A model generated the notes under the pieces. That model did not search any database, was not told the DNA's origin, and saw only the letters and a list, made by a program, of their open reading frames with translations. Position numbers and translations under genes: made by a program. Below, in pieces: positions 1 through 15,076 of a DNA stretch of 15,076 nucleotides (position 1 is its first letter; each line of letters starts with the position of its first letter). Source of the DNA: a virus. Lineage: Duplodnaviria; Heunggongvirae; Uroviricota; Caudoviricetes. Where the stretch lies: the IMG/VR virus record IMGVR_UViG_2651869755_000010, positions 1-15,076 of that record. One strand, 5' to 3'.

Positions 1-247
1 GGCGGAGAGCATCAATGGTCTTTACAAAGCGGAGGTAATACACCGTAAGAGCTGGAAAAACCGTGCAGAAGTGGAACTGGCCACACTCACGTGGGTGGAC
101 TGGTATAACAATCGACGATTGCTGGAAAGGCTGGGCCATACTCCTCCGGCAGAAGCAGAAAAAGCTTATTATGCTTCCATCGGAAACGATGATCTGGCAG
201 CCTGAGTTCACAGATAAAATACTCTCCAGGAAACCCGGGGCGGTTCA
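1..247 (+). mobile_element. IS3-family insertion sequence, IS629-like, terminal portion containing the 3' end of the transposase gene; terminus at about 247
   Basis: Reverse complement of 206-247 reads TGAACCGCCCCGGGTTTCCTGGAGAGTATTTTATCTGTGAAC, which matches the terminal inverted repeat of IS629/IS3-group elements as I recall it (TGAACCGCCCCGGG...). It lies directly after the stop codon of an IS3-type transposase reading frame. Confidence 0.75.
2..205 (+). CDS. IS3-family transposase OrfB, C-terminal 67 codons (5'-partial, continues upstream of window)
   Basis: Frame 2 translates without a stop from the window start to TGA at 203-205: AESINGLYKAEVIHRKSWKNRAEVELATLTWVDWYNNRRLLERLGHTPPAEAEKAYYASIGNDDLAA. 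This is the characteristic C-terminal tail of IS3-family integrase-like transposases. Confidence 0.75.
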   Translation, partial: AESINGLYKAEVIHRKSWKNRAEVELATLTWVDWYNNRRLLERLGHTPPAEAEKAYYASIGNDDLAA

Positions 248-902
248 CAATAATAATTGGGCGTGTAGCACGTATCAGATCAATTGGCTTATCCAGATCG
301 TCAACGGTTGTTTTTTCACTGGACTGATAGAGCTTATTAACGTCTTTTTTGTTAATCGCACCAACTGTCATTACCATGATCTGCATAACAGAGCTGGTTG
401 CAAAATTTCGCACATCCGCAGGTTTAGACGAGTCATACAGATAGTATTCGTATGGAATTCCCGCATAGAGGCTTTTAAAATGTTCTTCAGTGATTTGTAG
501 TGTTTTATAAACGCCTTCCTTGATGGCAATGGAAGGAACCACAATGATAAATTTGCTCATGCCATAACGTTTATTCAGCTCCAGCATGGTGCGAAGATAA
601 ACATACGTTTTACCTGTCCCTGTTTCCATCTCGACAGTAAAATCATGGCTGTCGAGCACAGGTGAAGGTGGAAGCTGATTCTTCAACTGAACCTTGTTCA
701 GGTTTTTCAGCAGAACATCATCTTCGGGTATCTGTGGGTTTACAGGCATTGAACCTGTTGCGGCTTCAAATGAGAGTGCGCCCTGAGCTGGGGCCAGCAC
801 AGTCATTTCGCTCTCCCATTTCTCTTGCCCTTCAAATAAATCACAGACCGAAGTAATGGCGTTTTGCTGATAGGTAAGGTCAGATTCAAAATGTAGTTTC
901 AT
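248..902 (-). pseudogene. res: Type III restriction enzyme Res subunit, N-terminal fragment of about 218 codons, interrupted by the IS insertion
   Basis: Minus-strand ORF starts with ATG at 902, 9 nt after the mod stop, and carries helicase motif I (FTVEMETGTGKTYVY). The reading frame enters the IS terminal repeat at 247/248, around ...RATRPIIIV, where helicase motif II (DExH) would be expected. The remaining 51 codons of the track ORF 87..902 are read-through into IS sequence. Confidence 0.7.
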
Positions 903-911
903 CTCATTCCC

Positions 912-2888
912 TTACAGGCTGTGCAGGTTAGTCAGGCCGTGTTGTTCCAGAATGGCGCAAAGATTTGTTTTAGCGACGTTATTTTCAAACGCATCATCAA
1001 GGAAATAGCAGACCGTATCTTTCCCAACTTTTAAACTCTTATGCCAGTCGATGATCCCCTTGGTCAGTTCTTCTACTGAAGATGCAGGGATTTGTTTAGC
1101 AAAGCAGGTAAACAATTTGCCACCGTCAACGCAAGAAACGGTTAATCCATCAAACTGACGGGTTTCAATGTCTACACTCAGGTCAATGCCACGCTTAAGC
1201 ATCAACTCTGTGAGTAAATCTTCTTCACTACGGCCTTCGAGGATTGGACTTACATAGGCATCAATCTGTTGTGAAAGGGTATCAGCAGTCGCTTCCCACG
1301 GACGGATGTTAGATGTATCAAGTTTAAACACACGAAAGCCAACATCACCTTTCCATTCTGGATTGTCTTCACGAACTTTTTTACCTGCTCGGCGAAGGCG
1401 TTCTTTAGTTATTTCAGAAATTTTTAATGGCATTCCATTTTTATTTAAGAAGCTTGCAGCAACAATCTGCTCCTTTGTTTCTGGAACAACTGGTTCTGGT
1501 AGTTGCGTAATGATAAAATTTATCTTTCTATTCTTTGTTGCATTGGCCATGAAAACGGCATGACCAAAAGTACCTGATCCCCCAAAAAAATCAAGTGCTA
1601 TACCTTTTTCATTTGGGTGTGTAGCTATTTCTACTATACGTAAAAGAGTACCCAAAGGTTTTGGTCTTGAAAAAACTTCTTTTTCGAATCCCAGCTCAAT
1701 AAATTGTTCACTACCTCTTTCACTATTTACATCTTTATGTGTCCATGAAGAGGTAGCCTTTATTGCATCTCTTTTTGATAAATAGTCTTTCTCCATGATT
1801 CCCCACGTTTTTTTTGTGGGCATGAACTTAGCATAAACACTATCAATTTTCGATTTAGCTGTATCAAAACCCCATCGCCATCGTCCATCAGTACCATCAT
1901 CTCTAATTGGTTTAATTTCAATTAAATCATTTTTTTTCTGGTCTCTAGATATAAATAGTTCGTTTGTTTTTTGATCATAGTAAAAATAGTAAAACATATC
2001 TGGTCGATCTTCTCTACGGTCAGCATCACCAGTTTTACGTAAATCTATGTCACGGAATATTTCACCGTTTTCGTCTGTCTTATTATATCTCTTTGTTATT
2101 TTATCGTCAGGCTCAAAGCCATAGGTTTTTGCATAGTTAATGTTCTTCGCCATTACTAATATATATTCATGAGCTGTTGCTATGAATTTATCGTCAGACC
2201 GTCCTTTTGGATTGTTAGTATTAGCAATAAGGGATATGAAATTTTCTTCTCCAAAAATCTCAAAGCATATGCCACATAGGTTGTGAAGTTCATTTTCATC
2301 AATCGATATAAAAATAAAACCAGAGTTGGCAAGTAAGTTTCTTGCTAATTTTAGGCGAGGGTACATCATATTTAGCCAATCAGTGTGATAACGTCCACTG
2401 GTTTCTGTATTTGTGCTTAAGCGATTTCCATCTTCAGTTTGTCCAGTGATTTCAAGATAATTTTTCATGTTATCTTGGAAGTTATCTGGATACACAAAAT
2501 CTTTCCCGGTATTATAAGGCGGATCGATGTAAATAAGCTTAACTTTTCCAGCGTAGCTTTTTTGAAGAAGCTTCAACACTTCAAGGTTATCACCTTCGAT
2601 CATGACGTTTTTAGTGTTATCCCAATCAACGCTTTCATCTTTACATGGACGTAATGTGCCACGGGAAGGGGTAAGAGCAAGCTGACGAGCCTGACGCTTA
2701 CCATGCCAGTTCAGGCCATAGCGCTCTTCTTTGTCGTCTACATTTTCACCCAAGAGCTGTTTTAAAACGTCAAAATCAATACCGTTTTCATTAAATGCTT
2801 CAGGAAACAAAGAGTTAAGTTTGCTGATATTATCTTCAGTGATATTCATTGATTGTAGTTCTGTCATATCAGAAGTTATTTTTTTCAT
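912..2888 (-). CDS. mod: Type III restriction-modification system Mod subunit (beta-class N6-adenine DNA methyltransferase)
   Basis: 658-aa ORF with motif IV IYIDPPYNTG near residue 120 and motif I LDFFGGSGTFGHAV near residue 430 (beta-class order). The N-terminal region (LNWHGKRQARQLA, IEGDNLEVLKLL) resembles EcoP15I/StyLTI-type Mod. It lies directly upstream of a res-like helicase ORF. Confidence 0.9.
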   Translation of the reverse strand: MKKITSDMTELQSMNITEDNISKLNSLFPEAFNENGIDFDVLKQLLGENVDDKEERYGLNWHGKRQARQLALTPSRGTLRPCKDESVDWDNTKNVMIEGDNLEVLKLLQKSYAGKVKLIYIDPPYNTGKDFVYPDNFQDNMKNYLEITGQTEDGNRLSTNTETSGRYHTDWLNMMYPRLKLARNLLANSGFIFISIDENELHNLCGICFEIFGEENFISLIANTNNPKGRSDDKFIATAHEYILVMAKNINYAKTYGFEPDDKITKRYNKTDENGEIFRDIDLRKTGDADRREDRPDMFYYFYYDQKTNELFISRDQKKNDLIEIKPIRDDGTDGRWRWGFDTAKSKIDSVYAKFMPTKKTWGIMEKDYLSKRDAIKATSSWTHKDVNSERGSEQFIELGFEKEVFSRPKPLGTLLRIVEIATHPNEKGIALDFFGGSGTFGHAVFMANATKNRKINFIITQLPEPVVPETKEQIVAASFLNKNGMPLKISEITKERLRRAGKKVREDNPEWKGDVGFRVFKLDTSNIRPWEATADTLSQQIDAYVSPILEGRSEEDLLTELMLKRGIDLSVDIETRQFDGLTVSCVDGGKLFTCFAKQIPASSVEELTKGIIDWHKSLKVGKDTVCYFLDDAFENNVAKTNLCAILEQHGLTNLHSL

Positions 2889-3067
2889 AAAAAGTATCCG
2901 TCATGAGGTCACGGGAAATCAGTGTCCGAAATTGGTAAGCATTTTACGGTATGAAGTGATAGCCATCAACCAGTGATGGCTATTCAAACATATCTAAAAC
3001 AAAGGGTTACATGCTGCTATATGATGGGTTATCAAACGGTTAGCCGTAATTTTCTAACTCATAATGT

Positions 3068-4339
3068 TCACCTTTGGGCAAACTCAAACGGCCTGACCAT
3101 ATCGTTTCGATTGGCATCAAGGAAGTCAGCCCACCACTGGAGCATCAGTCGGCGCTGGTCAAGGTGTTTAGCCTTATGGGTATAAGCAGCACGGACGCTG
3201 TTGCTTTCCTTATGACTCATCTGAAGCTCTACAGCGTCTTCTGACCACAAACCTGACTCAATTAAGGCACTACAGGCCAGCGTGCGAAAACCGTGCCCAC
3301 AGATGTCCTGCTTCGTGTCATAGCCCATATTGCGAAGGGCTTTGTTGATGGTATTTTCGCTCATGGGCTTAAACGAGTCATAACAGCCAGTAAAGATTAA
3401 TCCATCATCATGGCCTTCTTCATAAGTCAGTTGTCGGATCTCTTTGAGTATCTTCATGGCCTGCTTACAAAGGGGAACGAAGTGCTTACGCTTCATTTTA
3501 GCCCCACGAGTTGAATGTTTGACGTTTTCAATCGCTTCACGCTGTTCGGGTATCACCCATAACTTACTTTTGAAATCAATTTCTGACCAGCGAGCGAAAC
3601 GCAGCTCACTGGAACGAATGAAAATCATCAGATTGAGCTGTATTGCCAGTATGGTTAACCTGCGGCCTTTGTATTCGGCAATTTTTTTCAGTAGTTGGGG
3701 TATTTCTTCCAGTTCCAGTGCAGGGCGGTGTTCAGTCTGCGGTTTCTGAATAGCACCTTCCATATCATAGGCCGGGTTATGACGTATAAGTTTCTGCTGA
3801 ACAGCATGACGCAGGATCGCAGTAATGTATTGTTGAATGCGCATGGCAACTTCAAGATAGCCAAGTGCCTCAACCTTTTTCACTGGAACCAGCAGATCAC
3901 CCGTATCCAGTTCGGCAACATCTTTATCGCCAATTGTCGGGAAGACATAGGTTTCAAGGCGCTTCCATACGGAATCACCATAATCTTTAGACCATTTTGT
4001 TTTCGTGGAGAACCAAGCTTTAGCGACTACGCTGAAAGAGCGTGTTTTATCACGTTTAGCTTTTAGCTCTTTAACTTCTGCCTGTTTCTTGGCATTAGGG
4101 TCAATGCCCTGAGCAAGAAGCCTTCTGGCTTCATCACGGCGTTGTCTTGCGTCAGAAAGAGAAACAGCAGGGTAAACACCAATAGAGAAGAGTTTTTGCT
4201 TCCCTTCAAAACGGTAGGCCATTTGCCAGTATTTGGAACCCTTCGGGGTAACGCGAAGGAACATACCAAAGCCATCAGTAAGCTTGTATTCCTTCTCAAG
4301 GGGTTTGGCATTTTTTGCTTTAATATCAGTCAGTGACAT
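3068..4339 (-). CDS. int: P4-type tyrosine integrase (site-specific recombinase) of the tRNA-Asn island
   Basis: The track ORF is 434 aa; the likely start is the internal ATG at 4339 (MSLTDIKAKNAKP...), typical of P4-family integrases. N-terminal arm-binding-like domain and C-terminal catalytic domain (GHGFRTLACSAL..., AAYTH). Adjacent to the tRNA-Asn 3' end. Confidence 0.85.
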   Translation of the reverse strand: MSLTDIKAKNAKPLEKEYKLTDGFGMFLRVTPKGSKYWQMAYRFEGKQKLFSIGVYPAVSLSDARQRRDEARRLLAQGIDPNAKKQAEVKELKAKRDKTRSFSVVAKAWFSTKTKWSKDYGDSVWKRLETYVFPTIGDKDVAELDTGDLLVPVKKVEALGYLEVAMRIQQYITAILRHAVQQKLIRHNPAYDMEGAIQKPQTEHRPALELEEIPQLLKKIAEYKGRRLTILAIQLNLMIFIRSSELRFARWSEIDFKSKLWVIPEQREAIENVKHSTRGAKMKRKHFVPLCKQAMKILKEIRQLTYEEGHDDGLIFTGCYDSFKPMSENTINKALRNMGYDTKQDICGHGFRTLACSALIESGLWSEDAVELQMSHKESNSVRAAYTHKAKHLDQRRLMLQWWADFLDANRNDMVRPFEFAQR

Positions 4340-4519: not shown

Positions 4520-4595
4520 TGGCTCCTCTGACTGGACTCGAACCAGTGACATACGGATTAACAGTCCGCCGTTCTACCGACTGAACTACAGAGGA
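4520..4595 (-). tRNA. asnT: tRNA-Asn (anticodon GUU)
   Basis: Reverse complement is TCCTCTGTAGTTCAGTCGGTAGAACGGCGGACTGTTAATCCGTATGTCACTGGTTCGAGTCCAGTCAGAGGAGCCA, 76 nt, a canonical cloverleaf with a GTT anticodon and encoded CCA. Called asnT rather than another asn copy because of the neighbouring mtfA and serU. Confidence 0.93.
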
Positions 4596-4695
4596 ATCGT
4601 GAGAACGGGGCGCATATTACTTAGCGGTACCTTGTCTGTCAACACTAAATTTCATAAGCCATTTCAATTGGTTAATTAATCTGCAAAGTTGTTAA

Positions 4696-5493
4696 TTAAT
4701 GAACATTCGTCGCCGAAAACGAGTCTGTATCATTAGCGTGATGCAGTCTCTGCAAAGGATCTTGTTGATAAAATTGACAGAAACGTTGCCACAATGAAGG
4801 GAAACGAGGAGCAAAAAGTTCTGGGGCGCTAAAGAAATATTCAGAAAGTACGGCAAAACATTCAGCAGGATCACTGGCAGCATAAGCATCAATGCTCGCC
4901 GCATTCTCACCAACTAATTCGATTTCTTCCTGAATGTTGTTCATTGCAGCATGAAGATCGTGTTCCCAGCCAGCAACCTCACGCAACGAAATAAAGGGAA
5001 CTCCGCTGGCGCGATCGCCGTTACGGGTGTCCAGCTTATGAGCGACTTCATGAATAATCAGGTTAAAACCAGAAGCATCAAAAGAATCTTGTATATCCAA
5101 CCAGTTCAAAACGATAGGCCCTTGCTGCCAGCTCTGACCTGACTGAACAATACGTTGGTTATGCACCAGACCGATATCGTCTTCCCATTCATCATCGACC
5201 ACAAATGGCGCAGGATAAATTAAGACTTCATGAAAACCATCCAGCCATTCCAGTCCTAACTCCAGAACGGGCAGGCAAAATAGAAGTGCTATCCGGCAGC
5301 TTCTTAATGAATTCAGCTCAAAGCCCTGTAAAGGAACAAGCCGTTTTTGCTGTAAAAAACGTTCGGCAAGAGCGACCAATTTGCTTTGTTCCTGTTCTGT
5401 CAGACACGTTAAAAGGGGGATCGATAGTGCTTCCTGCCAGGGAAGGGCAGTTTGATGTGCTGATTCTTGTACTTTCCAGGGCCACTTAATCAT
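4696..5493 (-). CDS. mtfA: MtfA (Mlc titration factor A), zinc-dependent peptidase family
   Basis: 265-aa product starting MIKWPWK... (ATG at 5493, internal to the track ORF 4696..5532). HExxH zinc-binding motif (IIHEVAHKL). Conserved position between asnT and serU, as in E. coli K-12. Confidence 0.9.
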
Positions 5494-5586: not shown

Positions 5587-5676
5587 GGAGAGATGCCGGA
5601 GCGGCTGAACGGACCGGTCTCGAAAACCGGAGTGGGGGCAACTCCACCGGGGGTTCAAATCCCCCTCTCTCCGCCA
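5587..5676 (+). tRNA. serU: tRNA-Ser (anticodon CGA), with long variable arm
   Basis: GGAGAGATGCCGGAGCGGCTGAACGGACCGGTCTCGAAAACCGGAGTGGGGGCAACTCCACCGGGGGTTCAAATCCCCCTCTCTCCGCCA, 90 nt: class II tRNA with CGA anticodon in the loop CTCGAAA and encoded CCA. Confidence 0.93.
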
Positions 5677-5721
5677 AAATTCAATCACTTACACATCATT
5701 AAGTCAGTGACAAAAATCACA

Positions 5722-5753
5722 CTTGGAATTACTTGGAATATTTTCTTGGAATA
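5722..5753. repeat. Three direct copies of CTTGGAAT in the tRNA-proximal att region (candidate integrase arm-type sites)
   Basis: CTTGGAAT occurs at 5722-5729, 5732-5739 and 5746-5753; the last two sit within a duplicated TTGGAATATTTTC. The repeats straddle the integrase stop codon at the prophage end. Confidence 0.3.
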
Positions 5754-6754
5754 TTTTCAGGTAACGGGACATCAAGTGTCGGTGAAACTTTAACCTTCCT
5801 GTCATAGATTAGCACTTGCCCCTCGGTTTTGTGACCAGAGAAAAGTTGCTTATCCCGACTGCTTCCTTCATAGTCTGAAATTCCTTTCGCCTTCAGATCA
5901 TGAAAGGTGAAGTCGGTTAAAATACCTGAAATTTTGCCTGCGCGATTTCTTGCTTCTACCCACATTTCGTTAAAGCCTTTGTACATATATCGGTTGCCGT
6001 ATTGATTGCTGATTACATAGGCGGATGTTGGTAACTGTTTTGCTTTTTCGATCGCCGCCTGTAATCGTGGACTCCATGCTTTTATCTGTTTTTTTCCTGT
6101 TTTCCCTTGCTGGATAAAGATCCCGTCGTTTCCAATCTGCTCCCATTTCAGCGATAACACATCGGAAACCCTCGCTGCACACAGATAGGCAATTTCCATT
6201 GCGATAAAAACAGGAAGAGGTGCAACGCTTAATACTGCCTGGTATTCTTTGTCGGTTACATATCGTTCGCGGTTTTTGGCCTTGAATTTACTTACACCTG
6301 CACATGGGTTAGCCTTCACGTACCCTCGCTCATACCCCCAACTGTAAACACGGGACATACTGCTTTTTTCATGGTTGGCTTGCGTTTTACTCTGCTCCCC
6401 TCTTTTGTCCATGTATCGACGGATGTGTTCTGGTTTTATGGAATCCGCTGGTACCTTACCGAATACGGCAAGCAACTTTTTTTGATGTTGCAGATAATCT
6501 TTTTGTGTTCTTGGACTAAGGTCACTGTAATAGGCGCTGGCGAGGAATTTTTCCCACAAGCGACCGAATGTCATTGCACGATCGCGATTATTTACAGTTT
6601 CCTCATACTTTTTCCATAAAGCAGCTAAACCATCCTTGATGGCGGTTAGTGTGACAGATTCTCTGGATGTTGGTTTCCATACATAACTATATTTATTTGG
6701 GTATACATTTGGAGGTAATTTTTCGTGTTCAGGATTTTTCCTTCGTCTTCCCAT
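5729..6754 (-). CDS. int: Prophage tyrosine integrase
   Basis: 341-aa ORF with phage-integrase-type C-terminal catalytic region (...FTFHDLKAKGISDY..., ...GHKTEGQVLIYDRK...). Convergent with and adjacent to tRNA-Ser; start codon overlaps the stop of the upstream xis-like ORF (ATGA). Confidence 0.88.
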   Translation of the reverse strand: MGRRRKNPEHEKLPPNVYPNKYSYVWKPTSRESVTLTAIKDGLAALWKKYEETVNNRDRAMTFGRLWEKFLASAYYSDLSPRTQKDYLQHQKKLLAVFGKVPADSIKPEHIRRYMDKRGEQSKTQANHEKSSMSRVYSWGYERGYVKANPCAGVSKFKAKNRERYVTDKEYQAVLSVAPLPVFIAMEIAYLCAARVSDVLSLKWEQIGNDGIFIQQGKTGKKQIKAWSPRLQAAIEKAKQLPTSAYVISNQYGNRYMYKGFNEMWVEARNRAGKISGILTDFTFHDLKAKGISDYEGSSRDKQLFSGHKTEGQVLIYDRKVKVSPTLDVPLPENIPRKYSK

Positions 6755-6957
6755 CAGATCGCACCAAAATTCGGCTCTACCTCGCGTGGTGGTAAAGTTT
6801 TATTGCAGGTAAATAGATCCCGGCTGACAATCGGTTTGCCACTACGATTGGTATAGAACGGAAGCCCGTTTTCCATTAACCATTTTCGCTGGTGGCTTGC
6901 ATATTTGCAGCCCGTTAATATTAGCAATTCATCTTCGGTTAAAAATAAGCTGCTCAT
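6754..6957 (-). CDS. Excisionase-like small protein (DUF4224-like) upstream of integrase
   Basis: 67-aa ORF MSSLFLTEDELLILTGCKYASHQRKWLMENGLPF..., overlapping the int start by 1 nt. Position and sequence pattern match the small proteins found directly upstream of prophage integrases. Confidence 0.55.
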   Translation of the reverse strand: MSSLFLTEDELLILTGCKYASHQRKWLMENGLPFYTNRSGKPIVSRDLFTCNKTLPPREVEPNFGAI

Positions 6958-7015
6958 AGCTATATCTCATAACCGCCGCTAACTATATACGGTTAGCGGC
7001 AATTAGGGTTGAACA

Positions 7016-9457
7016 TTAAAAATCAGCCTGACTCGGGATCAGTTTTTGCCAGATAGCTGAAACGTATTTTGCCTGGTAACGAGCGTCATCAAGTGCATTA
7101 TGGCGCTCACCTTCGAATGGAATAGCCGTTCTGGCATCGAAGTCTATGGCTTTCCCCAGCTCAACGATTGTGCGTACATCGCGATCGTTGTAGTAACGCC
7201 ACGGGCAGGTGATCCCCTGCCGTTCGTATGAACGGCGCAAAATCGTGTTGTCGAAGTTGGCTCCATTTCCCCAGACCTGAACAAAAAATTCACCGGAGTT
7301 TTCGTCGATAAATTCCCGCAATTGTAACAGTGCATCATCTAACGGGATTTCATCGGTCATAATGGCAGATTGCGCTTCGCGTGATTGCTTAAGCCACCAT
7401 TTAATGGTGTCCCGATCAATGACTCCGCCAGCAGTTTCCAGATCGATAGTCTTACTAAATTCCGGTCCCACATCTCCGGTTTGCGGATCGAAAAATATTG
7501 CACCTATTGAGATGATCGGGGCATCAGGATTTTTTCCCATGGTTTCAAGGTCGATCATTAGATGGTCACACGTCCTGCTGGTGGATGTGATTTCTTGATG
7601 ACCGTTCACCTTAATTGAGTGATCTGCCGTCTCGCCAGTTTCATTATCGCTATCGTGATGCTGATTGCCGCCAGTGTTCTCCTTGTGTGGATGTTCAGCG
7701 CCTTCCATTTTCTCCGGATCATTTTCCTGAACTTCAACCTGATTCTCTTCATCGAATGTTTCCTGGTATGTTGCGTCGCCCATCACCGCGCCACAATCAG
7801 GGCAGTTGCCGCCACCGCTCTGACCGCAGGCGGTGCTGACTTTTTCCGGTTCCTGTTGCGCTACTGGTTCGGATTGTTTCGTTTCTGGCTCGTTTTGTAA
7901 CGCATTTGGGCTGTTTTGTTCCGCTTTTTGGTCGTTCCGTTCCGATTCATGCTGGTTCTGGTTCACAGAATCGCGAGTCTGGATCCCCTTGACCCATTTC
8001 GGATCATTAGGGTCGCTAATCCCCTCAACAAATTCACCACGCGATACAGCAAGTAACTTATCGGCGTCAGGCTGGCTGATATTGGCTGCCTGCATAATTT
8101 TGTTTACTTCGTCAGCGGTGACTTTTACTTGGTTAGCGGAACTCACCTGCGACTGAGCATCCAGCGACTGCGCGTTCTGGCCATGTTCAGTTGTATCCGG
8201 TTCCATTGTTTCAGTTGTTGCCTGTTCACCTGCCATTGCGTCAGATGGTTGTGGTTTTTCTTCTTCTGTTTCACGCTCAGTAACCACCTCGCGGTTAATT
8301 TCTTCCAGGATATCTTTTTCCGGCGTATGCCGGGCAGCTGTGAGAGTTTCCTTGCTGGGGTTCTCGTGATCAGTTTCCGTCAAATAGGCGTTGATATACC
8401 CCTGAAGGCGTCCCGGGTAGTGATAAAATTCAGGGTGTGCGCTTCGGATAAGTGCAAAAATAGCGGCGCGGGAATAGTCCAGAATACCCGGGGTTGCACG
8501 AAGTGCTGCGGACCATTCTTTGAACGGACTTTCTTTGTTCAGGACTACTTCTTTTGCGCGACGATAAACGCTGCCCGGAATTTCATAAATATTAAAATCC
8601 ATCGGAAGTGTGGCTGCTGCAATCTCCACATCCAGTGTGTCGAGGGTGTGTACTAAATTCGGATTGCGATCGGTTTTGTTCCCACCGCCAGCATTAGCAC
8701 CGGAAGCCGTGCGGGTGATGCGTGAAACACGATTTCCTTTCATCCACTCTTTTGTCAGCAGACCCCGATCAGTGTAGTCAGCGTCCAGGTATGCTTCGAA
8801 AAAAGCAGTTATTAGTCCCAGGTCTGAATTACCAGGATTAGGGAAAACTTTGTCAGTGTCACGAACCAGTTTGTGGAGGTCGCGAATCTCCAGCGAGTCG
8901 AGCAGACTGGTTTTATGCGAAATAGCCAGGGCAGTAACAGCCGGTAGTTCTTCAGCCCGTGCAATGTGTAATGCCTGGAGTTCGTCGCGTGAAACGTGCG
9001 TTACTGGTTTTTCGCTGCCGTGTTGAGCAAGCCAACGAATGGGCAGTTCCTGACCGGAGACAGGCAGAAGCATGCTCTCCTCAATCTCAGTCATGTCTTC
9101 GCCGTTGATGTTGGTATTGTCAGTGCTGGCTGGTTTGTCCTGAACAGAGGGGGAAGGGCCGATAAATGTCATTGTGATGCCATCTTTCCCGCCTTTTTCA
9201 TAGCGGTTGCAGAATTCAGTATCAAACACGCCTTCTGGCGGAAGGTCGTCAACAACGGGCAAATTGACGCGGACGGGTTTTTTAAAGTCGTCTTCATCAT
9301 AATCGTTGTCATCCATTGCGGTAATGCAGCGGGAGATTGCAACAGATAATTTTTTTGCTGTAGTCCAGTAAAAACCACCTTTAATTCCCAGGCGTTTTCT
9401 TACTTTGTCATTTTTTGCTTCGCAATATAGTGCAAATTCTTCTTTATCAGTGCTCAT
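7016..9457 (-). CDS. Prophage exonuclease: long RecE/YdfE-like N-terminal region with acidic low-complexity centre and C-terminal DnaQ-like DEDDh 3'-5' exonuclease domain
   Basis: 813-aa ORF. The C-terminal 190 aa carry Exo I (MIDLETMG), Exo II (VWGNGANFD) and Exo III ([13 protein letters not shown]) motifs. The centre is Glu/Gln/Asp-rich and contains [13 protein letters not shown]. Position between xis and the dicB module matches ydfE (Qin) and recE (Rac). Confidence 0.8.
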
Positions 9458-9550
9458 TATTGATAAACCTCATCACAGATTTAAGGGTGAACAAATCTCT
9501 GCCATTGCTGACATATAAGAATGAAACTGGATATTTATTACGGTGCTGTT

Positions 9551-9739
9551 TTAAAATCCTGCCGGGATTTCGTTATCCTGGTGAATAACTTTATCGACCG
9601 GATAACAGTTGCCTGGAATTTTCTGTTCGGTTGCTGCGGCCATACATTCCTGCATTGTTCTGTGAACACTGACTGCAATATCAACTGGCTCTCCGGAAAC
9701 AAGAAAAACCGTCAGAATAAGTGCAAATACTGGATTCAT
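9551..9739 (-). CDS. ydfD: YdfD-like small lysis protein of the dicB operon
   Basis: 62-aa product MNPVFALILTVFLVSGEPVDIAVSVHRTMQECMAAATEQKIPGNCYPVDKVIHQDNEIPAGF, with a hydrophobic N-terminus. Start is the internal ATG at 9739 with an AAGGA Shine-Dalgarno, overlapping the dicB stop (ATGA). Matches my recollection of K-12 YdfD in size and sequence. Confidence 0.65.
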   Translation of the reverse strand: MNPVFALILTVFLVSGEPVDIAVSVHRTMQECMAAATEQKIPGNCYPVDKVIHQDNEIPAGF

Positions 9740-9924
9740 TGTGCACATCCTTTTGGCATCAGACGTAAACGGGCCAGCATTGAAACAATGCATACTTTAT
9801 TTAATAACTCCCGTTCGTGTTTTCTTTTGTTAATGGCCTCTTCAGTGAATACAGGATTACTGATAGTGACACCAATTTCAAAACAACCTTCAGACGTATT
9901 AACGTTTGGTAATAACGTTTTCAT
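9736..9924 (-). CDS. dicB: DicB cell-division inhibitor (MinC-dependent FtsZ-ring inhibitor)
   Basis: 62-aa product MKTLLPNVNTSEGCFEIGVTISNPVFTEEAINKRKHERELLNKVCIVSMLARLRLMPKGCAQ, starting at the internal ATG 9924 with a GAGGA Shine-Dalgarno 8 nt upstream. Near-identical to my recollection of E. coli DicB, and directly downstream of DicF. Confidence 0.75.
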   Translation of the reverse strand: MKTLLPNVNTSEGCFEIGVTISNPVFTEEAINKRKHERELLNKVCIVSMLARLRLMPKGCAQ

Positions 9925-10093
9925 TATCGCGTCCTCAACAATGAATTTTGTGATGCAGTGCCTGGTGCCTCCAGGTGACGTTAACCAGTTAACAATTAAC
10001 GCCGGATACAGAGAATCCACCCATAACACTGTTTTTGGTTTTAACTGTTCCGCGTGCGCTTAGCCGCATTCACCGCATCACAAAATTCACTTT

Positions 10094-10151
10094 AAAAACG
10101 GCGGCAGAGCAGTCACGGAGTAAAACTGATACCGCCAAACGTCACCAGAAA
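10094..10151 (-). ncRNA. dicF: DicF small RNA (ftsZ-targeting Hfq-dependent sRNA) with U-tail
   Basis: Minus-strand sequence TTTCTGGTGACGTTTGGCGGTATCAGTTTTACTCCGTGACTGCTCTGCCGCCG followed by TTTTT matches the 53-nt DicF sequence as I recall it. Contains a GGCGG...CCGCC terminator-like stem and lies between ydfC and dicB as in Qin. Ends are approximate. Confidence 0.7.
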
Positions 10152-10491
10152 ATTGATAACAGAGGGCGTTGCAGCGGGGTTGTCACTTAAGCGTATGGTC
10201 AACCTGACAACCCGGTGTCCTCAACGGGGAAGGAATAACCCCGCCATACTTACCGCCGCGCCATTTCGCGGATTGCCACAACCGGAAGCGCACGGTCGAC
10301 GAAAATTTAACGACAGGCTATCTATGAACCAGCTACCTCGCCGTGCGCTTTCGCGTTATGGTCTGACCTTTCAGGGAAATATCCTTTCAGTAAACTGTCT
10401 GTGCCGGATGCTCACCCGTGTCCGGCGCACGCACTCCACCTCATCCGTGGAGAACTCCTTAATTACCAACCTTAGCTTCGTTGGTTAGCTA

Positions 10492-10710
10492 TTAACGCGG
10501 GTATGTAATCATTCTGGCAATGCTTAATGCCGCTGCTTTTTCCAGATTAGTGATATCCTGCTCCAGAGCGGACAGATTTTCAGCCTGCTTAGCCCTGGCT
10601 TCATTGGCCCATTTCAGATCCTGCGCTGCATTAATTTTCTGGTGCATCCACTCATAAAGTTCATCATCGGTATAGTCTGGCGCGATGATGACGGGTTCTC
10701 GTTTCTGCAT
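10492..10710 (-). CDS. ydfC: YdfC-like small protein of the dicB operon
   Basis: 72-aa ORF MQKREPVIIAPDYTDDELYEWMHQKINAAQDLKWANEARAKQAENLSALEQDITNLEKAAALSIARMITYPR, with an AAGGAG Shine-Dalgarno 6 nt upstream of ATG 10710. Size and position match ydfC upstream of DicF. Confidence 0.65.
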   Translation of the reverse strand: MQKREPVIIAPDYTDDELYEWMHQKINAAQDLKWANEARAKQAENLSALEQDITNLEKAAALSIARMITYPR

Positions 10711-10802
10711 GTCGGCTCCTTGTGGTTAGCGTTGCCTGCTTTTAACCACGTCAGGCGAGGTGGTATCCTCTGAGGGGTCTGTTACTCGAGAGGAAATTGG
10801 TT

Positions 10803-11003
10803 ATGAGTACAATCAAGTTTTCTTGCCCAGAATGTGGTGGCGAAGTCTTTGACACATCCTTTAAGTCGCAGGGCTCTGACAGTTTCGCGGGAGCCATCTG
10901 CAAAAATTGTGGTCACCTTGTAACTGAAGATGAGTCCTCGCAGTTCGATGACGAAATCGTTGACAATATCTTCGGTGCACTTACCAGAGACTTTCTGAAG
11001 TAA
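10803..11003 (+). CDS. Small zinc-ribbon protein (CPECGG...CKNCGH), hypothetical; oriented opposite to the surrounding early-left operon
   Basis: 66-aa ORF MSTIKFSCPECGGEVFDTSFKSQGSDSFAGAICKNCGHLVTEDESSQFDDEIVDNIFGALTRDFLK, with a GAGAGGA Shine-Dalgarno 8 nt upstream of ATG 10803. Two CxxC pairs are spaced as in a zinc ribbon. The overlapping minus-strand ORF 10782..11138 uses 6 rare Arg codons (AGA/AGG/CGA) out of 9 and looks like a shadow frame. Confidence 0.4.
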   Translation: MSTIKFSCPECGGEVFDTSFKSQGSDSFAGAICKNCGHLVTEDESSQFDDEIVDNIFGALTRDFLK

Positions 11004-11049
11004 AGGCGCATACCGCTTAGTTACCGCTCTGATAATTCTTACCTGTCCG

Positions 11050-11092
11050 GCAATGGCGCTGATGTCAATATAAAGCGCCATTGCTGCTTCTT
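11050..11092 (+). terminator. Candidate intrinsic terminator downstream of the zinc-ribbon ORF
   Basis: Perfect 11-bp inverted repeat GCAATGGCGCT / AGCGCCATTGC (11050-11060 and 11074-11084) with a 13-nt loop, followed by TGCTTCTTTG. The loop is larger than usual for a terminator. Confidence 0.3.
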
Positions 11093-11348
11093 TGCCGATC
11101 CCGGGATGCCTTCCATTCTGATGTTTGACTTCGCCCACTGAGAAATCCTCTGTTTCCCCTTAACGCCGGGGTAGCGGAACAAAAACCTGCTGCATAGTTA
11201 TTAAAGTTGAACCCTGCCGTCATGTTCTTACGCCTCGGGCTGGCTACTTAACCCCTGACCACTGCCTGGTAACTCGAAGTATTGCCCTGCATTCTGTAGG
11301 ATGGGGTGAGGGAATGAATGAAGTTTAGAAAAACGAACTTTTCAGGTC

Positions 11349-11370
11349 AATGTTTTTTTATCAAAACATT
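11349..11370. promoter_or_regulatory. Candidate left operator (oL-like) palindrome AATGTTTT-N6-AAAACATT downstream of cI, probable pL region
   Basis: Palindrome TGTTTT-tttatc-AAAACA at 11351-11368, extending to 11349-11370. It has the same 6-6-6 geometry as the palindrome overlapping the cI start at 12073-12090. Confidence 0.35.
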
Positions 11371-11434
11371 TTAAGCAGGCAGCTGTTAAGCCATCACCAC
11401 GATGGCATACAGTTAATCAAATAGATGAGGTTGG

Positions 11435-12073
11435 TTAAATATCTTGTTGAATTTTAAAGCATACGCCCAATATGCAAGATAGATCATCCAGCATAATTGA
11501 AGGGTAGCGAGGATTCGTGGGGACTAAAAGAATATCCGGCCCTTCTATCTCCAGTTTACGAATGACAGGTGTTGTGGTCCCTTTGGGTAAGGCAAGGACA
11601 ATATTTCCTGGTTGTACGGTTCGATCGGGATCAACAAAAACTGTTGAACCATTTGGGATGGAAACTCCCCCACCAGATGTTGACATACTGTCACTCTCTA
11701 GAACAACTGCAAAGGTATTGACCGGGATTTCTCCGACAAGCTGCACACAAGAGGTTATTGAGGAATTTTTCATATAATCACTCCAGCTTGCTGCCTGCTG
11801 AAGTGATAGTAGCGGAACCGTTTTTATCGGCGGTAAAGATAGATCAAGCGAATCACCTGTATTTAACTCTCCTCCATTAAGAAGCCAATTTTCGTTTACT
11901 TTCAATATTTTTGCCAGGGAACTTATGTAACGCGAGGACGGCGCTCCTCCACCGTTCATCCATTGACTTACGGAGCCTTTTGATGCGCCAGTGCCATTGA
12001 CAAGGTCTTTGCCTTTCAGGTTTAGCGCATGCATACGTTGGGTTATGCGTTCAGATATAGTTTGCTTGCTCAT
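11435..12073 (-). CDS. CI-type prophage repressor (N-terminal HTH, C-terminal S24 LexA-like autopeptidase domain)
   Basis: 212-aa ORF with an N-terminal HTH region (...GKDLVNGTGASKGSVSQWMNGG...) and a C-terminal S24-like domain (candidate Ser in VLESDSMSTSGG, Lys in VIRKLE). Divergent from a cro-like gene. No Shine-Dalgarno precedes the start codon, which lies inside the operator palindrome. Confidence 0.85.
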   Translation of the reverse strand: MSKQTISERITQRMHALNLKGKDLVNGTGASKGSVSQWMNGGGAPSSRYISSLAKILKVNENWLLNGGELNTGDSLDLSLPPIKTVPLLSLQQAASWSDYMKNSSITSCVQLVGEIPVNTFAVVLESDSMSTSGGGVSIPNGSTVFVDPDRTVQPGNIVLALPKGTTTPVIRKLEIEGPDILLVPTNPRYPSIMLDDLSCILGVCFKIQQDI

Positions 12074-12136
12074 GTTTTGATTTTAAAACACAGATGGTTT
12101 TGTTTCTTGACTTTCTTTGGTTTTGATTATTAAACT
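12073..12136. promoter_or_regulatory. Immunity-region operator/promoter segment (oR-like): palindrome TGTTTT-N6-AAAACA at 12073-12090, degenerate copy at 12119-12136, candidate pR -35 TTGACT at 12107-12112
   Basis: The 91-bp divergent cI/cro intergenic region holds TGTTTTgattttAAAACA, GGTTTTgattatTAAACT and a recurring GGTTTTG motif. TTGACT lies 17 bp upstream of TTAAAC, oriented toward cro. Confidence 0.4.
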
Positions 12137-12164
12137 TTTGACGTTCAGTTTTATGGAGCGACTC

Positions 12165-12407
12165 ATGAAAAAATCAGAAGTATTAGGCTATTTTGGCGGA
12201 GTTGTTAAAACAGCCGCAGCTCTAGGAACGTCAAAAACCACAGTCAGCATGTGGGGGGAAGAGGTTCCGTGGAAATGGGCGTTGCTAATTCAGGCAGTCA
12301 CTGCCGGGGCGCTCAAATATGAGTTACACATACCGACGGTTGTCATTCCCGGTTCTGATCATAATCCGCCTTCTAACCAAGGGGGGATTCATGAAAATCA
12401 AGCATGA
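12165..12407 (+). CDS. Cro-like / YdaS-family HTH regulator
   Basis: 80-aa ORF MKKSEVLGYFGGVVKTAAALGTSKTTVSMWGEEVPWKWALLIQAVTAGALKY..., with a GGAG Shine-Dalgarno upstream of ATG 12165. It is the first gene of the rightward operon, divergent from cI. The 3' end overlaps the next gene by 17 nt, so the true C-terminus is uncertain. Confidence 0.6.
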   Translation: MKKSEVLGYFGGVVKTAAALGTSKTTVSMWGEEVPWKWALLIQAVTAGALKYELHIPTVVIPGSDHNPPSNQGGIHENQA

Positions 12408-12816
12408 ACACATCCGCATGGCGATGAATGCCTGGGCGCATCCGGACGGCGAAAAAGTACCGGCTGCGAAAATTACCAAAGCGTATTTCGAGCTGGGAAT
12501 GACGTTCCCGGAACTGTACGACGACAGCCATCCGGAAGCCCTGGCCCGTAATACCCAGAAAATTTTCCGCTGGGTGGAGAAGGACACCCCTGATGCTGTT
12601 GAAAAAATTCAGGCTCTGTTACCGGCGATCGAAAAGGCGATGCCGCCTTTGCTGGTGGCCCGTATGCGCAGCCACAGTTCTGAATATTACCGTGAGATCG
12701 TCGAACGGAGGGATCGGCTGGTGAAGGATGTCGATGATTTTGTTGCGTCAGCGGTTGTTTTGTATGACCAGATGAATCGCGGCGGCCCGGCAGGGAATGC
12801 TGTGGTGATGCACTAA
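12391..12816 (+). CDS. YdaT-like protein (second gene of rightward early operon)
   Basis: 141-aa product MKIKHEHIRMAMNAWAHPDGEKVPAAKITKAYFELGMTFPELYDD..., starting at the internal ATG 12391 preceded by a GGGGGG Shine-Dalgarno. The N-terminus (MKIKHEH) matches my recollection of YdaT-family proteins that follow cro-like genes in Rac-like prophages. Confidence 0.6.
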   Translation: MKIKHEHIRMAMNAWAHPDGEKVPAAKITKAYFELGMTFPELYDDSHPEALARNTQKIFRWVEKDTPDAVEKIQALLPAIEKAMPPLLVARMRSHSSEYYREIVERRDRLVKDVDDFVASAVVLYDQMNRGGPAGNAVVMH

Positions 12817-12838
12817 AAGCACGGTGTTCGGGGGTTTT

Positions 12839-13801
12839 ATGAGCAGCAAGCTTCATGGTCTTGTCTGGGAAGGGTGCGCCTTCACCGGCATGATCTTATC
12901 CAGGGTGGCGGTTATGGCCCGTCTTGCAGACTACAGCAATGACGAGGGTGTGTCATGGCCTGCCATTGAAACTATCCGGCGTCAGATCGGTGCAAGAAGT
13001 GAATCCACAGTGAAATCGGCTATTGCAGAACTGGCGAAAGAGGGCTGGCTGACGAAGGAAGAGCGTAAGGTCGGTGGGCGTAATGTAAGCAATATCTATC
13101 GGCTTAATGTGGAAAAACTCGAAGCAGCTGCGGCGGCGGCGCGTGAGTCATATAAACCGAAAAGAAAAATTAGCCCGGCAAAAAATGACCCGTTAACAGT
13201 TGACCCGTCAAATATTGACCCCTCAACGGTTGACCCGTCAAATTTTGATGGATCAACTGTTGATAAAAAACTGCCGATTAGGGGGGCGATGATTGACCCC
13301 GATCCGTCAGTATTAAAACCTGATCCGTCAGATAAAAGATCTTCTTGTCCGGACGCTTCGCAACCGGACCCGCAGACGGCTGAACAGGATTTTTTAACCC
13401 GACACCCTGACGCGGTTGTGTTCAGTGCGAAAAAACGCCAGTGGGGAAGTCAGGAAGATTTGGTGTGCGCACAGTGGATCTGGGGACGAATCGTGAGTCT
13501 TTACGAGCAGGCGGCCAGCTATGATGGCGAGATCACTAGACCGAAAGAACCCAACTGGACAGCATGGGCCAATGACGTTCGCACAATGCGGATGCTGGAT
13601 GGCAGAACTCACAGACAAATTTGTGAAATGTTTGGGCGTCTCCAGCGGGATTCGTTCTGGGTAAAAAACATCATGAGTCCGGCAAAACTCCGGGAAAAAT
13701 GGGATGAACTGGTTATCCGCCTGGGGCGTTCGCCTGCGCAGCGTTGCGTGAATCACATTTCTGAACCGGACACTGAAATACCGCCGGGATTCAGGGGGTG
13801 A
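12839..13801 (+). CDS. Phage replication initiator (O-like, N-terminal winged-HTH) with internal iterons
   Basis: 320-aa product from ATG 12839 (track ORF begins at GTG 12824). The N-terminal wHTH-like region (...SWPAIETIRRQIGARSESTVKSAIAELAKEGWL...) is followed by a DP-rich linker encoded by 15-bp direct repeats. Sits directly upstream of a DnaC-like gene. Confidence 0.75.
   Translation: MSSKLHGLVWEGCAFTGMILSRVAVMARLADYSNDEGVSWPAIETIRRQIGARSESTVKSAIAELAKEGWLTKEERKVGGRNVSNIYRLNVEKLEAAAAAARESYKPKRKISPAKNDPLTVDPSNIDPSTVDPSNFDGSTVDKKLPIRGAMIDPDPSVLKPDPSDKRSSCPDASQPDPQTAEQDFLTRHPDAVVFSAKKRQWGSQEDLVCAQWIWGRIVSLYEQAASYDGEITRPKEPNWTAWANDVRTMRMLDGRTHRQICEMFGRLQRDSFWVKNIMSPAKLREKWDELVIRLGRSPAQRCVNHISEPDTEIPPGFRG
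13186..13260. repeat. Five tandem 15-bp iterons (TGACCCGTnAAnnnT) inside the replication initiator gene; probable phage replication origin
   Basis: TGACCCGTTAACAGT, TGACCCGTCAAATAT, TGACCCCTCAACGGT, TGACCCGTCAAATTT and TGATGGATCAACTGT are contiguous. More degenerate copies follow (TGATAAAAAACTGCC at 13261, GACCCCGATCCGTCAG near 13295, TGATCCGTCAG at 13321). Confidence 0.6.
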
Positions 13802-13807
13802 CGTGTC

Positions 13808-14554
13808 ATGAAAAACATTGCGGCAGTTGGGGTTCTTGAACGTATTCGCAGACTTGCACCACAGGGGTCGGTTCCACCGTACCGGACGGTGGAGGAGTGG
13901 CGGGAATGGCAACTTGCTGAAGGACGAAAACGCAGCGAGGAGATTAACCGCCAGAATCGCCAGTTGCGGGTGGAAAAAATCCTGAATCGTTCGGGCATCC
14001 AGCCTCTGCACAGCAAATGCTCGTTTGCAAATTATCAGGTGCAGAACGACGGGCAAAAATACGCGCTGAGCCAGGCCAAATCCATAGCTGACGAACTGAT
14101 GACCGGGTGCACGAATTTTGTGTTCAGCGGTAAAACCGGCACCGGGAAAAATCACCTTGCAGCGGCGATGGGCAACCGGCTGATGGTGAAGGGGCGCAGC
14201 GTGATTATCGTCACCGTGTCTGACGTCATGAGCGTGTTGCATGACAGCTACGACAACGGCAAATCCGGGGAAAAATTTTTACAGGAGCTTTGCGGGGTTG
14301 ATTTGCTGGTCCTGGATGAAATAGGCGTTCAGCGGGAGACGAAAAACGAGCAGGTGGTATTGCACCAGATAATTGATCGCCGGACAGCATCACTGTGCAG
14401 TGTCGGGATGTTAACAAACCTGAATCATGTCGCAATGAGTACGCTTCTTGGTGAGAGGATTATGGACCGCATGACCATGAACGGTGGTCGATGGGTGACG
14501 TTTAACTGGGATAGCTGGCGTCCAAATGTCAGCAATATGAGGGTTGTGAAGTAA
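13808..14554 (+). CDS. DnaC-like helicase loader / IstB-like AAA+ ATPase (phage replication protein)
   Basis: 248-aa ORF with Walker A (FSGKTGTGKNHLAAA) and Walker B (DLLVLDEIG), preceded by an AGGGGG Shine-Dalgarno. Downstream of the initiator gene as in Rac ydaU-ydaV and lambda O-P. Confidence 0.85.
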   Translation: MKNIAAVGVLERIRRLAPQGSVPPYRTVEEWREWQLAEGRKRSEEINRQNRQLRVEKILNRSGIQPLHSKCSFANYQVQNDGQKYALSQAKSIADELMTGCTNFVFSGKTGTGKNHLAAAMGNRLMVKGRSVIIVTVSDVMSVLHDSYDNGKSGEKFLQELCGVDLLVLDEIGVQRETKNEQVVLHQIIDRRTASLCSVGMLTNLNHVAMSTLLGERIMDRMTMNGGRWVTFNWDSWRPNVSNMRVVK

Positions 14555-14575
14555 TTTTGTCCGGAGGATATTTTA

Positions 14576-15076
14576 ATGGAAACCGTATCTGACGCACTGA
14601 AAGCACTGAAAAAAGCCTCTTCACATGTGGTGGCAGCTCGCCTTGGAATCAGTCGTGAAGAGGCTGTCAACGAGCTGTGGGAACTCAAAAGAAATGGCGT
14701 CGTTGATAAAACTGGTCACACCTGGTTTCTGGCTGGCGAAGGTGAATCCCGGGTAACCGAAGAGCGGCCAGTAAAATCTGAAGCACAGGATATGCTGACC
14801 GGGGAGGTCGAACAAAAAGTTACCGCCGACATGATGATTGAGTTTATCGGTCAGGATGGGGCTAAAACGTGTGAGGAACTGGCGGGTAAGTTCGGTGTCA
14901 GTACTCGCAAGGTTGCTTCCACGCTGGCGGTGGTAACCGCAACGGGGCGGCTGGCACGCGTTAATCAGAACGGTAAATTTCGTTACTGCATGCCGGGCGA
15001 TAATTTACCAGCAGAGCCGAAAGCCGCGCTGGTAACGGAAAGTGATGGTAAGGCCTTTCCTCAGCCAGCAGGTGCT
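14576..15076 (+). CDS. Hypothetical prophage protein with two tandem winged-helix-like repeats (3'-partial, continues past window end)
   Basis: ATG 14576 is preceded by GGAGG with an 8-nt spacer; the frame is open for 167 codons to the window end. Two similar segments: ...AARLGISREEAVNELWELKRNGVVDKTGHTWF... and ...LAGKFGVSTRKVASTLAVVTATGRLARVNQNGKFRY... Confidence 0.55.
   Translation, partial: METVSDALKALKKASSHVVAARLGISREEAVNELWELKRNGVVDKTGHTWFLAGEGESRVTEERPVKSEAQDMLTGEVEQKVTADMMIEFIGQDGAKTCEELAGKFGVSTRKVASTLAVVTATGRLARVNQNGKFRYCMPGDNLPAEPKAALVTESDGKAFPQPAGA

Follow-up and report, generated by a model that had tools for sequence, protein, structure and literature searches.

A Type III restriction-modification operon of Escherichia coli JA37 with an intact mod gene and a res gene cut at the end of an IS629 copy

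Features of the mod-res locus

The DNA analyzed here (the window, 15,076 nt) is one whole contig from the draft genome sequence of Escherichia coli JA37, which was isolated from blood in a case of urosepsis. That draft was assembled from short reads into 193 contigs, and this contig ends in a repeat, 247 nt into a copy of IS629. From that end inwards the following features were assigned:

1-247, plus strand: right end of IS629, matching the final 247 nt of a 1310-bp copy at 100%
2-205, plus strand: last 67 codons and stop of the transposase OrfB (NCBIfam IS3 family transposase match)
about 223-247, plus strand: right terminal inverted repeat of IS629, ending ...CCCGGGGCGGTTCA
87-902, minus strand: chimeric ORF of 271 codons, 219 Res residues followed by 52 from IS629 antisense (ORF list and translation)
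248-902, minus strand: 5' fragment of res (codons 1-218 and one further nt), with 100% identity to the first part of the intact 986-aa gene of E. coli TW10828; Pfam ResIII and DEAD
903-911, minus strand: mod-res spacer of 9 nt, GGGAATGAG on the coding strand, with Shine-Dalgarno-like GAG/GGGA (read from the sequence)
912-2888, minus strand: Type III mod, intact, 658 aa, exact match to WP_000724528.1, which is on 999 contigs
1426-2331, minus strand: variable AT-rich block in mid-mod (33-35% GC), presumed target-recognition domain (megablast gap between alleles; composition)
3068-4339, minus strand: tyrosine integrase of a genomic island, 423 aa (gene call; Pfam Arm-DNA-bind_3, Phage_int_M and Phage_integrase; WP_000059629.1 in identical DNA)
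4520-4595, minus strand: tRNA-Asn (GTT), the island attachment site, with its 3' end toward the integrase (ARAGORN)

The same tRNA-Asn/integrase layout is present in E. coli TW10828, Ec-042, and MS20645. The tRNA-Asn gene and the integrase assign the mod-res operon to the cargo of a genomic island of the ROD21-like (EARL) type, which has been described before. The other conserved EARL genes, for an excision factor, a relaxase, pilus proteins, and an H-NS homologue, were found in TW10828 and MS20645.

The Type III operon and the truncation of res

[quoted passage not shown] In the window mod lies directly upstream of res on the same strand, its stop codon 9 nt away from the ATG of res, which is the gene order of a Type III operon. 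The Mod protein matched Pfam N6_N4_Mtase (E = 1e-29) and has motif IV, DPPY, at residues 122-125, ahead of motif I, FGGSG, at residues 435-439 (FxGxG), with the variable domain between them. Its best structural match was the Mod of H. pylori (6k0w), and that of EcoP15I (4zcf_A) was also close. Alleles of the operon differ at the mod block 1426-2331. Elsewhere, in other strains, the mod of this same operon is itself disrupted, either by IS1 or through a nonsense codon, and MS20645 has mod R315*. A promoter scan upstream of mod gave one consensus-like site (2969-2941), which was no better than expected by chance, and a literature search on Mod and Res by accession returned nothing.

From 247/248 through base 4607 the window matches TW10828 at 100%, and in that strain res is an uninterrupted gene of 986 codons (WP_000766113.1); the 986-aa protein sequence occurs on at least 1000 contigs. 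This intact Res allele has a complete SF2 ATPase (motifs I-VI) and a C-terminal PD-(D/E)XK nuclease, with GTGKT at residue 95, DEPQ at 220, SAT at 249, GRGLR at 551, and PD...ETK at 918-939; the DEPQ aligns with DEPH, the motif II tetrapeptide of EcoP15I Res (4zcf_C). The JA37 fragment keeps the Walker A sequence GTGKT (residues 95-99, within VEMETGTGKT), breaks off one codon ahead of DEPQ (residues 220-223), and is left without motifs II-VI and without the C-terminal PD-(D/E)XK nuclease. Since only residues 1-218 with motif I are left in the window, we classify the JA37 locus as a disrupted member of the Type III R-M systems.

These comparisons bear out the main elements of an earlier sequence-only reading of the window, which had proposed a Type III mod-res operon with a full-length mod 9 nt upstream of a res gene that is intact for about 218 codons, including METGTGKT, and meets an IS end at 247/248, where helicase motif II is expected. 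Pfam matches (N6_N4_Mtase, ResIII/DEAD) and the presence of EcoP15I Mod and Res among the closest solved structures support the operon assignment; the identity of mod, its 658 codons, and its two motifs support its completeness; and the 100% identity to intact 986-aa copies up to the break places the end of res where that reading had put it.

The IS629 end

As read from the window sequence, the IS terminus ...GGGGCGGTTCA finishes at base 247. The first 247 nt comprise the end of OrfB and the terminal inverted repeat TGAACCGCCCCGGG...; they are identical at 247 of 247 positions to complete 1310-bp elements, which in turn are 99.9% identical to elements in phage records annotated as "IS3 family IS629". 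The sequence-only reading had described the element as IS629-like; the assignment of an IS629 end stands, although "-like" is too cautious, as this is IS629 itself. IS629 (IS3 family; also annotated as IS1203) is the chief source of insertion mutations in E. coli O157 and Shigella. A reference IS629 copy has a 3-bp target duplication, and 3-bp duplications were also seen among the sampled copies. The left end of the element carries TGAACCGCCCCGGGAATCC... (TGAACCGCCCCGGGAATCCTGGAG).

The reading frame of res enters the IS and stops after 52 foreign residues. The exact chimeric 271-aa protein was found on one contig only in a collection of 15 billion proteins. Among 5426 complete E. coli genomes, searched with the 1-3200 stretch and with a 240-nt junction probe, the IS/res junction was absent, and 40 of these genomes carry the allele without the insertion in res. 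The lack of the junction in any complete genome and the confinement of the chimeric ORF to this contig indicate that the event is strain-specific.

Origin of the IS/res junction

Transposition predicts a junction lying exactly at the IS terminus, and this is what is seen, which supports an IS629 insertion. Chance can be set aside: 655 nt agree with intact res without a mismatch, and the break coincides with the last base of the IS. We regard it as probable, from the sequence, that transposition of IS629 into res made the locus res-minus and mod-plus, and that this was a recent, strain-specific loss of function and not a regulatory device. The IS would have entered res after the first base(s) of codon 219 and ahead of motif II (DEPQ), and the most likely form of the event would be a simple insertion with a 3-bp CAA duplication. 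Another contig would then carry the remaining 767 res codons, past the far end of the IS, and a simple insertion predicts that the IS629 left end is joined there to ...GCGGTTCATCTACAA (...TTTGCGGTTCATCTACAA), that is, to res from codon 219 onward with the CAA duplication.

Because the contig ends inside the IS, only one IS/res junction was observed, and with only one flank in the window the other IS end may adjoin unrelated DNA, through an IS629-mediated deletion or inversion or through recombination between copies. Under such a rearrangement the 767 distal res codons, possibly with part of the island, would have been lost or moved, and the conclusion that res is null and mod intact would be unchanged. 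When IS629 copies were sampled from the representative genomes of Shigella flexneri and E. coli, many had no matching target duplication, which shows that such rearrangements are common. Consistent with a rearrangement, the expected distal res fragment was not found: exact look-ups of the proteins predicted for duplications of 2-5 bp and eleven start codons gave matches for fragments of 729, 668, and 619 aa in ENA/Logan assemblies only, none of them from the NCBI source of JA37. However, this miss is weak evidence, because a hit required the start codon to be guessed correctly and every amino acid to agree, and the default outcome for IS629, as the observed 3-bp duplications indicate, is a simple insertion. 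On balance we consider a rearrangement rather unlikely, while taking it seriously.

Much less credible is that the join is an assembly artefact, either a chimera or a junction present only in a subpopulation, the main genome having an intact res. The short-read draft of 193 contigs and the contig end in a repeat count in its favor. However, a k-mer-driven chimera would not place the join exactly on the final base of the inverted repeat, where it lies here, and the 247 nt of IS contiguous with res in the assembly amount to about one read length. We consider this explanation very improbable.

That 248-902 is a naturally short gene with the IS lying outside it can be dismissed almost entirely: nothing was found to count in its favor, the ORF in the window closes only within IS-derived sequence, and the same DNA is a 986-codon gene in TW10828, Ec-042, MS20645, and JE86-ST02. 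The alignment to full-length res thus upholds the earlier view that this stretch is a truncation.

An octamer at the insertion site

The terminal octamer of IS629, TGAACCGC, lies inside the DEPQ codons (GAT GAA CCG CAA), at a distance of 4 nt from where the IS inserted. The octamer occurs nowhere else in some 93 kb covering the island and its flanks. Within the IS3 family, IS911 reportedly inserts beside sequences that resemble its own ends. By analogy, the insertion site in res might be non-random, with res and helicase genes coding for DEP(Q/H) holding a built-in target for IS629-type elements, although we think this improbable. Under this reading GATGAACCGC is a candidate IS629 target in res and helicase genes, and, if it were true, loss of restriction through octamer-targeted IS629 would be recurrent and not accidental. 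A general preference of IS629 for end-like targets was not significant overall among 27 distinct flanks from representative genomes; one of these was a near-match, and in another case the IS629 copy lay directly against a solo right end of 26 nt. The coincidence of the octamer with motif II offers a modest clue to the target choice of IS629. A chimera formed through the shared octamer GCGGTTCA was also considered and rejected: such a chimera would read on as ...TCTACAAT, unlike the window.

Predicted consequences for JA37

If res was inactivated by IS629 as proposed, the Res fragment could neither translocate nor cut DNA. The mod gene lies upstream, unaffected by polarity, and has the same sequence as the intact allele that is widely conserved. 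Mod acts as a methyltransferase dimer without Res (PMC3333885), and through such a dimer the Type III sites would still be methylated, while restriction of incoming DNA by this system would be lost. A restriction-minus, methylation-plus state is thus what Type III biochemistry predicts: JA37 would have lost one barrier to incoming DNA, and its own DNA would still be marked by the methylation of this system. Less probably, the orphan Mod might also reshape the methylome of JA37, a sepsis isolate; an effect of it on gene expression, as the sequence-only reading suggested, would be conjectural. The relevance of the finding is limited to the methylome, phage sensitivity, or plasmid uptake of JA37, with little beyond the strain.

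Comparison with known systems

Relative to known IS629 elements, the JA37 right end has the exact sequence and nothing unusual, the comparison covering the last 247 nt that are in the window. With EcoP15I/EcoP1I (4ZCF) the JA37 operon shares the mod-then-res order and a Mod in which DPPY precedes FxGxG with a variable middle domain. The intact Res allele further shares with these enzymes an N-terminal SF2 ATPase (GTGKT, DEPQ/DEPH, SAT, GRGLR) and a C-terminal PD...ExK nuclease. Searches with phmmer against the EcoP15I enzymes (4ZCF) gave E values of 7e-65 for Res and 2e-55 for Mod; Res is nonetheless a distant allele, its alignment to EcoP15I Res being limited to residues 54-574 and 873-963, and, unlike EcoP15I, the JA37 Res is cut after residue 218.

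The ROD21-like (EARL) family includes the islands of ETEC-2265 and SF-088 as well as ICEKp258.2 of K. pneumoniae ST258, and many of its islands contain Type III R-M systems (PMC6035254). In the ETEC-2265 and SF-088 islands the integrase, mod, and res DNA is identical to that of the JA37 locus. The JA37 island lies at the Asn-tRNA gene beside mtfA, as in MS20645, and not at the one beside yeeO. It differs from its ROD21-like relatives in that its res is interrupted.

Type III loci that are mod-plus and res-minus are documented in H. influenzae (PMC1976455), and JA37 shares with the phasevarions of H. influenzae and Neisseria (PMC1976455) an intact methyltransferase gene beside an inactivated res. 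However, phasevarion mod genes have tetranucleotide or similar switching repeats, and the JA37 mod does not: Tandem Repeats Finder returned only two trivial 2-copy repeats in 1-3200, and a phase-variable mod was rejected. In addition, res is inactivated by frameshift in the phasevarion loci and by an IS in JA37. An IS629 knockout of a Type III res is ordinary and already known in kind, and JA37 offers one more example of the known pattern of frequent knockouts among R-M operons carried by mobile islands.

Truncation of res by IS629

The window is the entire contig LJYC01000056.1 (15,076 bp) of assembly GCA_001306715.1, from E. coli JA37, one of eight urosepsis-patient blood isolates; the assembly was produced with A5 from 250-bp paired Illumina reads and comprises 193 contigs. 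Its left end is the contig end and lies within a repeat, IS629, which limits what can be concluded about the insertion described here.

Features of the window (position, strand where assigned, description, basis)
1-247, plus: IS629 right end including the terminal repeat, ...CCCGGGGCGGTTCA, finishing at base 247 (sequence)
2-205, plus: C-terminal part of IS3-family OrfB, last 67 codons and stop (sequence, transposase match)
87-902, minus: chimeric 271-codon ORF, Res start with IS-derived tail (ORF, protein look-up)
912-2888, minus: Type III mod, 658 residues, DPPY at 122, FGGSG at 435 (Pfam N6_N4_Mtase, structure matches)
3068-4339, minus: tyrosine integrase, directly upstream of mod (Pfam domains)
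4520-4595, minus: tRNA-Asn (tRNA search)
5729-6754: prophage integrase
7016-9457: prophage RecE-like exonuclease, 813 aa, Rv2179c-like domain
11435-12073: prophage S24-peptidase repressor
12824-14554: prophage replication genes

From 247/248 to 4607 the window has 100% identity with E. coli TW10828, where the counterpart of the res fragment is an uninterrupted 986-codon gene (WP_000766113.1, annotated "type III restriction-modification system endonuclease"). Annotations of Ec-042, MS20645 and JE86-ST02 list this protein too, and its exact 986-aa sequence is present on at least 1000 contigs in the protein collection. The exact match confirms the truncation proposed in the sequence-only reading; a naturally short gene is excluded because the same DNA runs on in TW10828. 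The intact Res carries GTGKT (95-99), DEPQ (motif II, 220-223), SAT (249-251), GRGLR (551-555) and a PD...ETK nuclease motif (918-939), and aligns with EcoP15I Res (4zcf_C, E = 7e-65), which has DEPH opposite the DEPQ found here. Of this gene the window retains codons 1-218 in full and a single base, the first, of codon 219; base 247 is common to the IS end and the target, and the frame continues past the break for 52 IS-derived residues to a stop at base 87. The JA37 Res is cut before motif II and lacks the nuclease; the earlier description of 218 codons, with Walker A present and the break at the expected position of the DExH box, was right to within one codon.

Bases 1-247 match numerous copies in E. 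coli and Shigella at every position (247/247). One complete copy (comparison sequence L005, 538-1847) is 1310 bp long; its left end reads TGAACCGCCCCGGGAATCC and its duplication is CTG, 3 bp. Identity between this copy and elements annotated "insertion sequence: IS3 family IS629" is 99.9%. Based on these identities, we assign the window element, previously called IS629-like, to IS629 itself. The transposase frame is on the plus strand, in antisense orientation relative to res.

The intact target on the plus strand reads ...TTT GCGGTTCA TCTA|CAATAAT..., in which GCGGTTCA is also the last eight bases of IS629. This octamer, TGAACCGC on the coding strand, falls within the DEPQ codons (GAT GAA CCG CAA), 4 nt from the insertion point (window 240-251; comparison sequence L001, 5990-6004), and is the sole copy in the 93 kb examined, the IS end itself aside. 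IS911, which like IS629 belongs to the IS3 family, is reported to insert beside sequences resembling its own ends, and the octamer's placement may, as a lead only, reflect similar targeting by IS629. Among 27 IS629 flanks in a small survey there was one near-match, and another copy lay directly against a 26-nt solo right end; overall this was not significant. The latter, in E. ruysiae NZ_CABVLQ010000001.1 (minus strand), is a full IS629 followed directly by a second copy of the right terminal repeat (…GGTTCA|CTCTCCAGGAAACCCGGGGCGGTTCA), that is, an IS beside a solo end.

Occurrence of the interruption

A related operon is present in 193 of 5426 complete E. coli genomes and the window's allele in 40, none of which has an insertion in res. 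The IS629/res junction is absent from all 5426, which counts against a strong hot spot, and the chimeric ORF occurs on a single contig, that of JA37, in the whole protein collection; the IS629 knockout of res is therefore specific to JA37. Partial Res proteins from other drafts of E. coli and K. pneumoniae (P0130, 217 aa; P0164, 224 aa) end at residues 217 and 224, near the JA37 break; they may reflect short contigs, or contigs interrupted by a repeat that inserted at a similar position. In other strains the operon is broken in mod: by a nonsense codon, R315*, in MS20645 (L004 12665-14641), and by IS1 in JE86-ST02 (L008 3317-6070) and, in a related allele, in KFu022 (hit H198). Both activities are lost in these strains, since Res cannot work without Mod.

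The intact mod gene and its island

In JA37, mod lies upstream of the insertion and is intact, as originally read: it is full length with both motifs, and its stop is 9 nt from the res ATG. Its product matches the H. pylori (6k0w) and EcoP15I (4zcf_A) Mod subunits and is identical to WP_000724528.1, named "MULTISPECIES ... [Enterobacteriaceae]" and found on 999 contigs. No simple-sequence repeat was found in mod, so nothing points to phase-variable expression. The middle block (1426-2331; 33-35% GC versus 44-49% nearby) is the only one differing among operon alleles in E. coli and is thus the presumed target-recognition domain, a sequence pattern consistent with swapping of that domain.

The integrase-mod-res block forms, in TW10828 and MS20645, the end nearest the tRNA of a ~27-kb island, which carries type IV pilus remnants with pilV, traD, a MobQ relaxase, RepL, an H-NS homologue and a "SEN1982 family" lipoprotein. 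The operon is identical in ETEC-2265 and SF-088, listed members of the Enterobacteriaceae-associated ROD21-like (EARL) island family, in which many islands, ICEKp258.2 included, have Type III R-M systems (PMC6035254); neither the system nor its carrier is thus new to the literature. The identical island end lies at the mtfA-adjacent Asn-tRNA in JA37 (window 4520-4700) and MS20645 versus the yeeO-adjacent one in TW10828 and Ec-042, showing that one island uses different Asn-tRNA copies. Beyond tRNA-Asn the window holds, in order, mtfA, tRNA-Ser and a lambdoid prophage (5587-15076, at tRNA-Ser(CGA)), which also has DicB and DUF1482 genes and has its closest relatives in NCTC11151 and E. coli 042.

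Form of the insertion and its consequence

A simple insertion of IS629 into res is the probable event. We modelled the distal res proteins as a gene caller would predict them, for duplications of 2-5 bp and for eleven start codons; exact-sequence look-ups found fragments of 729, 668 and 619 aa only in ENA/Logan assemblies, with none from JA37's NCBI source. An IS-mediated deletion or rearrangement would leave the same right-hand junction and is a less likely, though possible, origin. The join falls exactly at the IS terminus, which makes an assembly artefact unlikely. The sequence-only reading was right in substance, but overstated what is known of the insertion's other end, which lies outside the contig, and of any regulatory role.

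DNA recognition and methylation are the work of Mod, which can function as a homodimeric methyltransferase, whereas Res is responsible for ATP hydrolysis and cleavage (PMC3333885). With res truncated and mod intact, JA37 would be expected to keep methylation by this Type III system and to lose restriction through it. An IS has here knocked out, in a single strain, a Type III restriction gene of a known kind on an island from a known family, which is an ordinary event. A res-minus, mod-plus state such as the one predicted is viable and has a precedent in Type III loci of H. influenzae (PMC1976455).
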